From a virus (taxonomy: Duplodnaviria; Caudoviricetes), in IMG/VR virus record IMGVR_UViG_3300028048_001169, positions 96,001 to 160,000 of that record: a stretch of 64,000 nt of DNA. One strand, 5' to 3'. This document shows, piece after piece, positions 37,544-42,991 of the stretch. The position numbers were made by a program, and so were the translations under genes. The first letter of the stretch is position 1. Every line of letters starts with the position of its first letter. The notes beneath the pieces were generated by a model. The model had not been told where the DNA came from. It saw only the letters and a list, made by a program, of their open reading frames with translations, and searched no databases.

Positions 37544-39193
37544 ATGTCATATTCAAAAGGAACTGATGGTGGTAGTGGTGGAGCACAAACTAATGCTAAA
37601 CATGTAGAAGAAAAATTATCTGATAAAGAAAAAGAAGAAAGAAAAAGGATAGTAAAAGCTCAAAAAGCAGCATACAATGCGGTACGAAAATCTGGAAAAA
37701 AAGTATCTGATTTTGATCCATATGGAAATGATGCTGAGTTTAAGAAGCATACTAATGGAGTTGGTGGTGGCTCTTCATATATACCAGGTGTACTTACATC
37801 CGGATCTATAAATGGTATATTTGGAATGCCGTACCAATTTCTACCATCTGTAGATAGACGAGTTTATGTAGAGGGAAATACGAATGATAATACTATAATG
37901 GGTAGAAAGTATGCAGAGAAAGTTGCATCTCATCTACCATTATTATTTTTAACCCCATGTCGCCAAGTATTCATGGAGGGATTTGATGCATCAGATCAAG
38001 AGAGTGTTCTTGGTAGTATTGTAAATGGTGCCGGTATAGCTGGTGCTATTGGTGGTAATGGTGTTGTTGAAAGTAGTTTATTAAAGAAAACAGGTAGATA
38101 CTACAGTGCAAAATATGCTTGGGCTGAGTACTATCGTTGTGTAAATAAACTAGCAACACAGGTTGCTGTTTTATGCGGTTTACAGGACGAGTTATCTTCA
38201 GATGGTGTTAATCTAGCCAGTGAAGATTGGGTAAATAAAAAATTTCATAACGAAAGTTTTGATAGATATTTTGCTGCTAAAAAATCAGTTGTATTATACG
38301 TTGATGGATTAACAACAGTAGATGATTCTTTTTCAAATTCAACAACTGATTCATCATTAGCATCAACAATCAATGGTTTTGGAGAGCAAGCAAGAGAATT
38401 ACGATTTATTACTGGTGGATCTAGTGGCTTAAGTGCAATCTATGACAAAGGTTCTGAAATGGCACAAGATATAACAAAAGATCTCACATCAATTACTGAA
38501 AGATTCGGAGGAGCATCGCTTACAGAAGGTATGCTAGGAGATTTAGCAAAAACTGGTGTAAGTACTGTTTTAACTGGTGGTAAGATTATATTCCCTAAGA
38601 TTTGGGGAGATTCTTCTTATAGTAGGTCTTATAGCTTCTCTATTAAATTAAGATCACCAGATCATGATTCTTATAGTATTTATCGTAATATACTGATACC
38701 ATACTTACATTTATTAGCACTTGTAATGCCACAGTCTTTAACATCTGGTCCGGGTGCACAAAATCCAAATGCATATGATACACCGTTCTTAGTACGTGCA
38801 TATGCAAAAGGAATGTTTAATATTAATATGGGTATGATAACAAGTATGGATGTTACCAGAGGAGCAGAAGCTCAATGGAATGATCAGGGATTGCCAACAC
38901 AGATGGATATTAATATTACCATAGAAGATCTGTATACAAGTTTATATTTGTCAAACCCTAAAGGTATTAATTATTTCCGCAATACATTTGATATTATTAC
39001 GAATACTGAAATGGTAGATTACTTGGCAAATTTATCAGGTCTAAACGTTGCAGCTGAAACTGTTACACGACAAGTACAGTTGTTCAAATATATGGTGGCA
39101 GCCGACTTCGCTAGAACACCTTCAAATATTTATAATTATTTTGAAAACGGTGTTACAAATCTAATAAGAAGAGCATTTGAACGTTTATTCTAA
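37544..39193 (+). CDS. Putative virion structural (baseplate/tail) protein
   Basis: Follows the giant tail gene behind a late-type motif (AACT-N6-TA ~37498); C-terminal PKIW.DS...RSYSF..L...GMITS...W...GLPT pattern. Confidence 0.6.
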   Translation: MSYSKGTDGGSGGAQTNAKHVEEKLSDKEKEERKRIVKAQKAAYNAVRKSGKKVSDFDPYGNDAEFKKHTNGVGGGSSYIPGVLTSGSINGIFGMPYQFLPSVDRRVYVEGNTNDNTIMGRKYAEKVASHLPLLFLTPCRQVFMEGFDASDQESVLGSIVNGAGIAGAIGGNGVVESSLLKKTGRYYSAKYAWAEYYRCVNKLATQVAVLCGLQDELSSDGVNLASEDWVNKKFHNESFDRYFAAKKSVVLYVDGLTTVDDSFSNSTTDSSLASTINGFGEQARELRFITGGSSGLSAIYDKGSEMAQDITKDLTSITERFGGASLTEGMLGDLAKTGVSTVLTGGKIIFPKIWGDSSYSRSYSFSIKLRSPDHDSYSIYRNILIPYLHLLALVMPQSLTSGPGAQNPNAYDTPFLVRAYAKGMFNINMGMITSMDVTRGAEAQWNDQGLPTQMDINITIEDLYTSLYLSNPKGINYFRNTFDIITNTEMVDYLANLSGLNVAAETVTRQVQLFKYMVAADFARTPSNIYNYFENGVTNLIRRAFERLF

Positions 39194-39285
39194 GTATAAT
39201 AAATAGACAGGAATCTTTGTGTTCCTGTCTATATTTGATATTTACACGGATATTAACTTATTAATATATAAAGGAGGTAATATAC

Positions 39286-39678
39286 ATGAGTTCTATCATA
39301 CCATCACTAAACCTATCAAAAGCAATTACTGATCAGTATAACAGAGTTAACGATTTAAAAAATTCTAATGCATCTACAGAAGCATTAGGAATTGATTATA
39401 GTCGACTGGATACCAAAACAAAAGGAATGCTAAAGGATAGCATTGCATCTGCTATAGTGAATTATAAAAAGTATGACATGTATCCAGAGACAAAAGAATA
39501 CCTGGATCAGTTATTCAAACAGAATATGGGTACTTCATTTACAATTGAATATAAGAAATTAAAAGACGACTTATGTGATATTAATGTAGAGGGTAATCTA
39601 AGAGAAACCATTCAGTTGGTATTGATCAACAGAGCAAGAGAATTATATCTTGATATGACATTAAACCCTACAGTGTAA
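39286..39678 (+). CDS. Hypothetical protein whose stop codon overlaps the first repeat unit
   Basis: AAGGAGG RBS; late-type motif ~39256; no terminator between it and the array. Confidence 0.7.
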   Translation: MSSIIPSLNLSKAITDQYNRVNDLKNSNASTEALGIDYSRLDTKTKGMLKDSIASAIVNYKKYDMYPETKEYLDQLFKQNMGTSFTIEYKKLKDDLCDINVEGNLRETIQLVLINRARELYLDMTLNPTV

Positions 39679-40595
39679 ACCCGCTAAAAATAAGGGTTTT
39701 ATACTCTTGGTATACCAAGACCATATAATCCACTGTTTATGGGCTTTATGGAAGGTGTGATTTTATACTGTTTGTGCACTCTTTCAATCATTAACTTCCT
39801 GTTCGATATGGCGTCAAACCCGCTTAAAATAAGGGTTTTATACTCTTCCAATTTGGAAGACCACATAACCCAGTATTTATGGGCTTTGTAGGAGGTTTGG
39901 TTTTATAATGATTATACACCTTTTAAATAACATATAATGGTGTATTTTTTGAGATGTCCTCCCAAACCCGCTAAAAATAAGGCTTATGAACTCTTCATAT
40001 AGGGAGAGTACATAACCCAGTATTTACGGGCTTTGTGGAGGGTGTGGTTTTATAATGATTATACACCTTTCAAATAGATTCCCTGTATTTTGATATGTCG
40101 TCAAACCCGCTAAAAATAAGGGTTTTATCCTCTTCCAATAGGGAGACCATAAAATCCCGTATTTACGGGCTTTGTGAGGTATTGTTGCATAATGCTGGCT
40201 ATGTTTTTCAAATTAGAAAACCTGTATCTTGACATTGCTTCAAACCCGCTAAAAATAAGGGTTATGTACTCTCCCTAAACCAAGAGTACATAATCCACTG
40301 TTTATGGGCTTTGTGGGGTGTGGTTATATAACGATTATATACCTTCAAAATACATATCACTGTTTATTTTAGTAAGGTCTCAAACCCGCTTAAAATAAGG
40401 GTTATGTACTCTTGGTATACCAAGAGCACATAATCCAGTATTTATGGGCTTTGTAGAAGGTTTGATTTTATAATGATTATATACCTTCAAAATACATATC
40501 ACTGTTTATTTTAGTAAGGTCTCAAACCCGCTTAAAATAAGGGTTTTATACTCTCCCAATACCAAGAGCACATAACCCAGTATTTATGGGCTTTG
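39677..40595. repeat. Tandem array of 7 imperfect palindromic ~140-bp units
   Basis: Units start at 39677, 39816, 39964, 40103, 40242, 40382, 40524; each AAACCCGCTWAAAATAAGGGTT-central dyad-AAYCCAGTATTTAYGGGCTTTG plus a ~65-75 bp related spacer. Confidence 0.95.
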
Positions 40596-40677
40596 CTTAA
40601 AAATATTTTGAATCATATATTATAAATGTGGTAATATATAAGCTCGTCTATAATTATAACGTAAAAAGGAGGATATT

Positions 40678-41307: not shown

Positions 41308-42669
41308 TTGAATTTAGAAGAATCACGTATTACGGTTAACTATTCTTATCCTGATAATATGGATTGGGAATACACAGCACACATGGAGCGTATTGACTTT
41401 GATAAAGAATGTGCTTTAGATATAGAAACTGGAAATGGTTTCATTATAGCGCCACCAAAGACAACTATTAAGAAGGATATTAAAGATCCAGATGGAATCT
41501 TTAGTCCTAAATTTGGTCAGAAATTGGGAGATCTAAATCCATTCATTGATCGTTATAGTTGTGAATGTGGTAATTTAAAATCACGTATCAACAATGGTAT
41601 TGAATGTCCTATATGCCATACGAAATGTAAATCTGTTGGTGATAATTTTAAGATGTTTGGATGGATTAAATTGAAACCAGAATACCCAATCATCCATCCA
41701 GATATATATGTAAACCTAGATTCATTCTTTGGACGTTCAAAATATGATAAGAAATCTCGTAATAGAGAAAAGGGGTCGAAGTTAAGAAACATTATCGAAT
41801 ATGATATTCCAATTGATCTGAATGGTAATGAATCTGAATTGATTTCAATCGAAAAACCAGATGAACCTTTCTTTGGAAAAGGAATGATTTATTTCTATAA
41901 TCATTTCGATGAAATTATGCATTATTATTATCAAAAGAATCCTAAGAAGAAAGAACTCTATGATGATATTATGAAAGATAGAGAGAAAGTATTTACACAT
42001 TCTCTACCAGTCTTCACAACACATCTTAGACCAATGGATATATCTTCTGGATCAATGTATTTTGAACGTTGTACAGCGATATATAATATGATGGTAAAGG
42101 AAGCTCATCATGTAAATAGAACTGATACAAAAGCAAATAGAACTCCAAAGGTAAAAGCACAAGAGTTGTTCAAATTACAGATGAAGTTCAACGAATTATA
42201 CACAGAGGTTGTACAAATTCTGAATGGTAAGCGTGGACAACTTAGAATGCTAGTTGGAGGAAGATATAACTTCTCTGCACGATGTGTTATTCGTCAGGAA
42301 CCTTCTTTACGAATTGATTATATCAAATTACCTTATAAAGCTTTAGTTATTATACTAAAAGCTCAGATAGAGAATTTACTCCATAGAATGTATAATATAT
42401 CATTCCAAGAAGCATATGATCGATGGGAACGATCTTTGGACAAGATAGATCCTATTATATTAAAGATTCTAAATTCTCTTATTGAACATGGTCACGTTAA
42501 TCCTGAAACTGGAGAAACAGAACCAGGAATTCCATTTATTATTAATCGAAATCCTACTATCAATTATGGTTCTATTATTCAAGTATTCTGTGTTGGTATT
42601 AATCTAAATGATTTTACCATGGCAATATCTCTCCAGGTATTAAAAGGATTATGTGCTGACTTCGACGGT
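41308..42669 (+). CDS. Phage RNA polymerase beta' subunit N-terminal half, exon 1
   Basis: DGIFSPKFG, Zn finger CECG..CPICH, FGWIKL, GKRGQLR...GRYNFSARCVI, NRNPTI, ADFDG. Confidence 0.92.
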
Positions 42670-42991
42670 AAACGTAAAAAGTACATTGCCGTCGTTAAAG
42701 CTATCTAACTGCTGGAAACTGCTTAGAGCTTATTCTACCAAAGTGTGACAATGAATAAGATTGGACAATCAGCAACGAAGTCTCTGTATAGAGAAACGCT
42801 CAACGACTATCGAAAAGCAAAGTAATTCGAGAAATACGGTTACAATTGTTAGTAGAGTAGGGCCTAAAATTTAGGTAGGTGAAATTCCTTTAAATCCAAA
42901 CGGTAGCCAATATATGTACGGTAATAGTGCATATATTGAAGATATAGTCTGTGTTATATAGAAATATATAATGTCGTTATAATAAATAACG
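42670..42991 (+). ncRNA. Group I intron (322 nt, no ORF) inside the RNAP catalytic ADFDG/D motif
   Basis: GGT| donor with IGS GCCGTCG (42688-42694) pairing CGACGGT; P10 GTACATT/GATGTAC; P7 GACTAT 42805 and GATATAGTC 42941; terminal G42991; splicing gives ADFDG-DVLNIML in frame. Confidence 0.92.

Follow-up and report, generated by a model that had tools for sequence, protein, structure and literature searches.

Between a conserved 130-aa open reading frame (ORF) and a BRO gene, the viral DNA analysed here (the window, 64,000 nucleotides in length) carries a tandem series of long palindromes whose half-sites occur in mixed combinations, and the locus raises the question of what such an array does, which proteins would read it and how its half-sites came to be shuffled. 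The window is contained in a virus record of 225,070 bp, about 92% complete. Split phage RNA polymerase subunits are encoded there, as are a UvsX-like recombinase and an SbcC-like protein, and the record therefore represents a jumbo phage of the phiKZ/AR9 type. Most sequencing runs in which the locus occurs are bovine gut metagenomes (16 studies), and the virus is a phiKZ/AR9-like jumbo phage of the cattle rumen. Logan contigs of run X1, possibly the source sample itself, are identical to units 2–5 over 546 nt. The locus is laid out as follows, in window coordinates:

39203–39232, no strand: bidirectional intrinsic-terminator-like hairpin that closes the virion gene block before the 130-aa ORF
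39286–39678, plus strand: conserved 130-aa ORF, outside the inserted module
39677–40594, no strand: array of seven intact dyads (A, 71–72 bp) alternating with six decayed copies (B, 68–76 bp)
39677–39747: A1, with 22-bp left arm, 28-bp core dyad at 39699–39726 and right arm; centre TGGTA/TACCA
39748–39815: B1, a decayed dyad copy, the 'spacer'
39816–39887: A2, core at 39838–39866; 11-bp centre TCCAA-T-TTGGA
39964–40034: A3, core at 39986–40013; centre TCATA/TAGGG
40103–40173: A4, core at 40125–40152; centre TCCAA/TAGGG
40242–40312: A5, core at 40264–40291; centre CCCTA/AACCA
40382–40452: A6, core at 40404–40431; centre TGGTA/TACCA
40524–40594: A7, core at 40546–40573; centre CCCAA/TACCA; ends 18 bp before the promoter motif
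39888–39963, 40035–40102, 40174–40241, 40313–40381 and 40453–40523: the other B copies
40613–40626, plus strand: early-type promoter motif TCATATATTATAA
40678–41283, plus strand: BRO gene, 201 aa; Bro-N at about residues 25–146 (Mbp1/KilA-N-like fold), then a C-terminal coiled coil
41308–42708, plus strand: 5' exon of the RNA polymerase beta-prime subunit gene, with an optional group I intron at about 42631–42971

The initial annotation had described a seven-unit palindrome array with a period of about 140 bp, and this description holds: successive units are spaced by 139, 148, 139, 139, 140 and 142 bp, and the dyad centres that it listed are as claimed, with that of unit 3 now added. An intact unit consists of a 22-bp left arm, a 28–29-bp core and a 21-bp right arm, and the core itself of six variable bases, TCT, a centre of 10–11 bp, AGA and again six variable bases. 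The array has a TRF score of 827 and is the sole long array within the window; with a matrix built from the units it is found at a single locus of the 225-kb genome, where the seven cores score 30–39 bits and the next site 12. The stretches between the dyads align with the intact units better than dinucleotide shuffles do (mean z 3.1; z above 2 in 17 of 28), and in strain L011 B equals A at 42 of 54 aligned columns. What had been called a spacer is a degenerate copy of the dyad, so that the array alternates intact and decayed monomers of about 70 bp.

Several more familiar identities were considered and rejected. The array is not a CRISPR array, as its spacers are homologous to one another and to the repeat, and a likeness by eye to a Cas9 repeat:anti-repeat was dropped for want of Rfam support, the spacers being decayed repeats. 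Matches to a sigma-70 promoter in each unit are rarer than in shuffles (9 versus 13.4), with an unconserved −35 position, and helical phasing of the unit lengths gave a Rayleigh p of 0.007 overall and of 0.22 without the modal 139–142 class. Scans of IMG/VR, JGI metagenomes and GTDB gave no match to the left-arm or core pattern, and blastn against phages and plasmids returned chance matches only.

The surroundings of the array give the first indication of its role. Copies of TCATATATTATAA occur 25 times in the genome, all on the plus strand and mostly 30–200 bp before a gene, and the motif resembles the early promoter consensus of phage AR9 (PMC5312081). A TAAAA element often precedes these copies. 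At the present locus the array lies just upstream of the motif at 40613 and BRO just downstream of it. In three related lineages a homolog of the 130-aa ORF (44–48% identity) is followed after 66–92 bp by beta-prime, with neither array nor BRO at that locus (in L042 the ORF after the homolog is a fragment, identified as beta-prime by its start); a TCATATATTATAA-like motif stands in this gap in L071 and L081, and four related phage records have no Bro-N gene. The absence of array and BRO from the three lineages, together with the shared promoter, shows that both are lineage-specific additions around an ancestral promoter and, since they lie on opposite sides of it, possibly the result of two insertions. 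L071, which has no array and no BRO, carries a perfect 26-bp palindrome just downstream of its beta-prime promoter (approximately L071:6415–6440).

The gene before the array had been described as an unterminated late gene that stops inside unit 1. Indeed no plus-strand terminator was found downstream of the 130-aa ORF, and its stop codon does overlap unit 1, to the extent of the first two bases only; the label of late gene is not secured, because the bidirectional terminator at 39203–39232 separates the ORF from the virion genes. The protein has no Pfam, PHROG or convincing Atlas match, and short or partial homologs occur in two distant jumbo phages (L001:7175–7369 and L043), in L001 at 630 bp upstream of beta-prime. 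Comparison of the 549-aa virion gene (window 37544–39193) with L023–L034 shows that the gene order downstream of it differs by clade: closer relatives continue with the 130-aa gene and beta-prime, distant relatives with other genes, and no similar array was seen at the 19 loci compared around the 549-aa gene in distant relatives. The group I intron of the beta-prime gene (Rfam RF00028, 68.9 bits) is optional among strains, products of 466 and 536 aa both occurring in the cluster.

The gene after the array was correctly recognised as a BRO-N gene: it matches PF02498 at 42.4 bits, versus a curated cut-off of 25.6 (E 1e-10), and is the sole Bro-N gene of the genome. Compared with canonical Bro-N it has an insertion of about 24 residues in the second helix region. 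A model built on a 32-row alignment reached a pLDDT of 76 (an earlier model from a shallow alignment, 35), and its best match is the Mbp1 DNA-binding domain (VIA Z 7.8, rmsd 2.5, 88 aligned), where a Z below 8 counts as moderate and can reflect a common fold only. A Foldseek search returned no match at E≤0.001, and a sequence search of the PDB yielded no Bro-N structure. As a homodimer BRO scored 0.60, with 0.02 for the best control, at least 90% agreement between runs in their contacts and a pLDDT of at least 80; of the solved pairs 20 of 30 attained the mark of 0.60, of the single chains 1 of 23. The modelling supports BRO as a predicted Mbp1-like homodimer suited to a dyad. Two 151-nt pieces of metatranscriptome X24 fall in BRO and none in the array, a coverage too thin to weigh.

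Near-identical phages, in which the neighbouring genes share 93–99% DNA identity, allow the comparison of unit number and half-sites that the initial annotation had proposed. Seven units are present in the window and L010 as well as in L004, L008 and L016, four in L009 and L020, three in L022 and at least three in L021, with mixed half-site combinations, as read from short-read assemblies that may be collapsed or chimeric. Conservation is distributed unevenly along the repeat: column identity is 96.5% in the left arm (18 of 22 columns invariant), 90% in the right arm, 72–79% in the variable core blocks and 76% in the B copy (3 of 69 columns invariant), and TCT and AGA are invariant. This implies that the array is under selection, because homogenisation alone would not leave just the arms and TCT/AGA conserved.

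What might the arms be conserved for? They match the E. coli IHF consensus (WATCAANNNNTTR) with one or two mismatches, a loose likeness. Arm motifs do not occur elsewhere in the phage genome, in which no HU/IHF gene was found, and in bacteria they recur at mobile-element ends. GTDB contains 21 exact matches to the right-arm 20-mer versus 1.5–2.7 expected, the matches not being independent: nine related loci adjoin a low-molecular-weight phosphatase gene at the end of a Tn916-type integrase element, another three come after a serine resolvase and three, in Alphaproteobacteria, are at tRNA-end-like sites. At several of the bacterial right-arm loci the motif stands between sets of short repeats that resemble arm-type sites, and one bacterial version of the motif matches the E. 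coli IHF consensus exactly. The left-arm pattern is present in 8 of 151 genomes of the family of a Lachnospiraceae isolate (reversed control, 0), where an integrase at guaA, a large serine recombinase, a tRNA promoter region and a Rep_trans gene are among the adjacent features. From these sequence likenesses we infer that the arms are putative sites for a host bending protein. Near Lachnospiraceae Bro-N genes the arm motif is not enriched (13 matches, 17 in the control).

The 22-bp IHF-type motif has a wider distribution of its own. In the form AAACCC-N9-11-GGGYTT it is found in gut Firmicutes and other bacteria, where it lies at the ends of integrative elements, follows resolvases and precedes some promoters (L044, L047–L052, L056–L061, L063, L064 and L119–L126), and a limited literature search found no description of it at gut Firmicutes element ends.

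The array is most likely a protein-docking array rather than a site-specific recombination cassette. An intact unit would be a composite site made of an IHF-type bending site, the 28-bp dyad with its fixed TCT and AGA, and a second bending site. On such a platform of double-stranded DNA it is most likely the BRO homodimer that would read the core, and the arms may be occupied by a host nucleoid protein. As the array abuts the early promoter of BRO and beta-prime, its simplest job would be to set the level or timing of this operon, through autoregulation by BRO or through titration of BRO. We consider the chances about evenly balanced that the array docks BRO together with a host bending protein and so tunes or titrates the BRO and beta-prime operon. 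Unit number and half-sites would then drift through general recombination while selection keeps the arms and TCT/AGA. The variation of BRO between strains, which is concentrated in its Bro-N domain (figures below), also speaks for docking, although with a pN/pS below 1 relaxed constraint may account for it. Among the points against the docking reading are that the arrays hold mixed half-sites common to several BRO alleles and not one cognate site for each allele, that array and BRO could be two insertions and that the IHF likeness is loose.

To our knowledge, no sequence-specific DNA target of any Bro-N protein is known. The locus therefore offers a candidate target with a natural allele series, at least six BRO alleles and 30 dyad variants, so that in vitro tests of the question need no host. 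For a jumbo phage that has its own RNA polymerases, it would also place a candidate regulatory platform on the early-to-late switch. The evidence comes from one phage lineage, and a limited literature search found no description of a jumbo phage, a Bro-N gene and repeats in this arrangement.

Phage HK022 has a binding site for its protein Roi together with an IHF site. Among known systems, such palindrome-plus-IHF modules with Bro-network proteins seem closest in logic to the present array, by analogy: in both, a variable palindrome and an IHF-type site are tied to an antirepressor-like protein of the Bro network, that is, the network of DNA-binding proteins of phages and satellites as defined in PMC10111431. 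Here, however, the dyad has two arms and 71 bp, is arrayed outside the gene, is without a recognisable copy in the coding sequence of BRO and belongs to a jumbo phage with its own RNA polymerases. That the array consists of silent copies of a palindrome within BRO was considered and rejected, as nhmmer gave no match and the six alleles contain no conserved dyad; the best unit-like site in BRO ranks 130 of 450,080 in the genome, with a score of about 0. In E. coli, BIME-1/RIP elements combine REP palindromes with an IHF site. They resemble the array in their tandem palindromes with IHF-type sites at the 3' end of a transcription unit, but here the sites flank the dyad, an inverse layout, at a single locus and with no REP signature seen.

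The host-like arms can also be read in another way. The units might mimic sites of the host or of mobile elements and so act as decoys that soak up a bending protein, dyad-binding regulators or defence proteins, in which case the diversity of the cores would cover host variants and BRO would be an incidental neighbour. Arms made of host-type motifs, confined to a single locus of the phage genome, are consistent with this, as is the stable pool of several core alleles common to all strains. The core pattern was not found, however, in 301 genomes of the sampled family (that of the Lachnospiraceae isolate) or in the viral and metagenome collections, and array and BRO are absent together in the relatives, which makes decoys an unlikely explanation.

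Array and BRO might instead diversify together as lock and key, the array serving as a reshuffling library of BRO sites. The BRO alleles share 84–96% identity with that of the window and hardly vary in the C-terminus: pN is 0.076 for residues 46–146, 0.016 in the C-terminus and 0.002–0.015 in neighbouring genes. The variable residues lie in three places, namely the beginning of the long second helix (52–58), the hairpin tip (88–96) and the predicted dimer interface (113–146), so that under the lock-and-key reading the alleles would differ in recognition helix, wing and dimer interface. The half-sites TGCTA, TAGCA and CACCA go with one BRO type (L020, L021, L022) and not with the other two (the window; L004/L008/L016), a pattern that physical linkage alone could produce and to which run X3 is a possible exception. 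The pN/pS of BRO is 0.40, and since it is below 1, relaxed constraint may explain the variation and positive selection is unsupported. We regard a co-diversifying module as rather improbable. If it existed, co-infecting strains could tell their own genomes from foreign ones or capture a rival's BRO, and the discrimination would take place at the promoter from which expression of the phage's own RNA polymerase starts.

The initial annotation had also pointed to the palindrome arrays (hrs) of baculoviruses and to a possible origin or centromere. Baculovirus hrs are tandem repeats with imperfect core palindromes of 28–30 bp, near bro genes (PMC4758234, PMC3230853). The parallel holds in form: the array shares with hrs palindromic repeats of about 28–30 bp (here a 28-bp core dyad in a monomer of about 70 bp), gain and loss of units between isolates, adjacency to an early promoter and a variable bro gene nearby. 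It fails in that hrs occupy many loci and the array only one of the record, which is about 92% complete; moreover, the array belongs to a bacterial virus and has IHF-type arms and alternating intact and decayed monomers. Origin or enhancer activity and binding of IE-1 are further marks of an hr; the likeness being one of form, the array does not count among the hrs. A partition site would find its model in pSK1 Par (PDB 8csh), a single-protein partition system with a winged-helix and coiled-coil dimer whose gene directly follows a repeat array, as does that of BRO with its winged-helix-like domain and coiled coil. The pSK1 repeats, however, are short and direct where the units here are dyads, the fold match is weak (Z 3.7) and this phage is of a lytic type. 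In three small gut phage contigs (L065, L066 and L068; L068:4886), the right-arm motif has three TGTAGT repeats on one side and three ACTACA repeats on the other, immediately downstream of a VapE-like primase gene; this candidate replication origin speaks for an hr-like role of the array. On the other side stand the single locus, the three related lineages with no array there, a genome-wide skew that shows no switch at the array and the lack of any tubulin (PF00091) found in the genome. An origin or centromere essential to the whole family is thus unlikely, and an hr-like origin or enhancer, or a pSK1-type partition site bound by BRO, is a doubtful reading of the present array.

Just as doubtful is the idea that the array functions as RNA, its hairpins being processed from the 3' region of the 130-aa transcript into a sponge or antitoxin mimic. 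It would accord with the lack of a plus-strand terminator after that ORF, with folding that beats shuffles in most units (z −0.7 to −5.1, both strands) and with two-sided changes in excess of shuffles (39 versus 22.8). Yet arm-to-arm copying also explains such covariation; at variable pairs the plus-strand mismatches are C.C (30), A.C (30) and G.U (9), with no wobble class above shuffle, no Rfam match reaches the gathering score and the arms are DNA-type motifs of element ends. The mismatches and the lack of an Rfam match speak for a site in DNA rather than a hairpin in RNA.

Strand exchange at the dyad centre, by a site-specific recombinase or telomere resolvase of phage or host, had been put forward as the cause of the shuffling. 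The shuffling itself is real: 30 distinct units contain 18 combinations of left and right half-sites, drawn from discrete haplotypes (nine distinct 4-mers versus 18 expected). The array resembles att/res and telomere-resolvase sites in its long dyad and its att-like flanking motifs, the same arm motif lying at real element ends of gut bacteria. The statistics of the cores point elsewhere; they rest on 30–31 non-independent units (30 distinct) from short-read assemblies, and p-values are indicative only because the units have common ancestry. The Mantel association of blocks on either side of the centre (r 0.17, p 0.006) is not below that between blocks within one arm (r 0.02 and 0.11), symmetric cores are over-represented (10 of 30 versus 5.4 expected), and 11 of 30 centres carry an extra base, 11 bp versus 10 bp. 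Exchange also occurs elsewhere in the unit, since intact and decayed subunits reassort: identical A units accompany unrelated B copies, and identical B copies accompany different A units. All nine core 4-mers are connected by single-base steps. Searches of the genome (G000, about 92% complete) for tyrosine or serine recombinases (PF00589, PF00239, PF07508) and for a protelomerase (PF16684) found none, although the enzyme could also come from the host. With no cognate enzyme found, no fixed crossover and a variable centre length, a recombinase substrate is very unlikely.

What the half-sites fit is arm-to-arm copying together with unequal exchange along the whole unit, not a fixed central crossover. 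Both arms use one pool of alleles, with six of nine core 4-mers and seven of 12 flank 6-mers found on both as reverse complements (0 in same-strand and in reversed controls). The co-variation of the flanks that had been reported is partial: it holds for the seven of 30 distinct units with symmetric flanks, more than the 1.9 expected, and not for the remaining ones. Nucleases of the SbcCD type are known to cleave hairpins, and template switching is an established route by which palindromes become perfect. General recombination of palindromes and repeats plausibly explains the shuffling, by copying from arm to arm inside a palindrome and unequal exchange between tandem units, in which UvsX and SbcC of the phage would plausibly assist.

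Finally, the array might be no more than a neutral or selfish repeat, derived from the captured end of a mobile element through amplification by slippage and now functionless. This would suit a lineage-specific array of 3–7 units in which half of the monomers are decayed, but near-invariant arms beside a diverged B copy imply selection and every spanning assembly retains at least three intact dyads, so that this reading is hardly credible.

Palindromes also occur within other Bro-N genes. Many Lachnospiraceae Bro-N genes (L089–L118, at about 1612–1666) contain a palindrome of 20–30 bp in the codons between the second helix and the hairpin, and in L117 and L118 it is perfect over 14 pairs.
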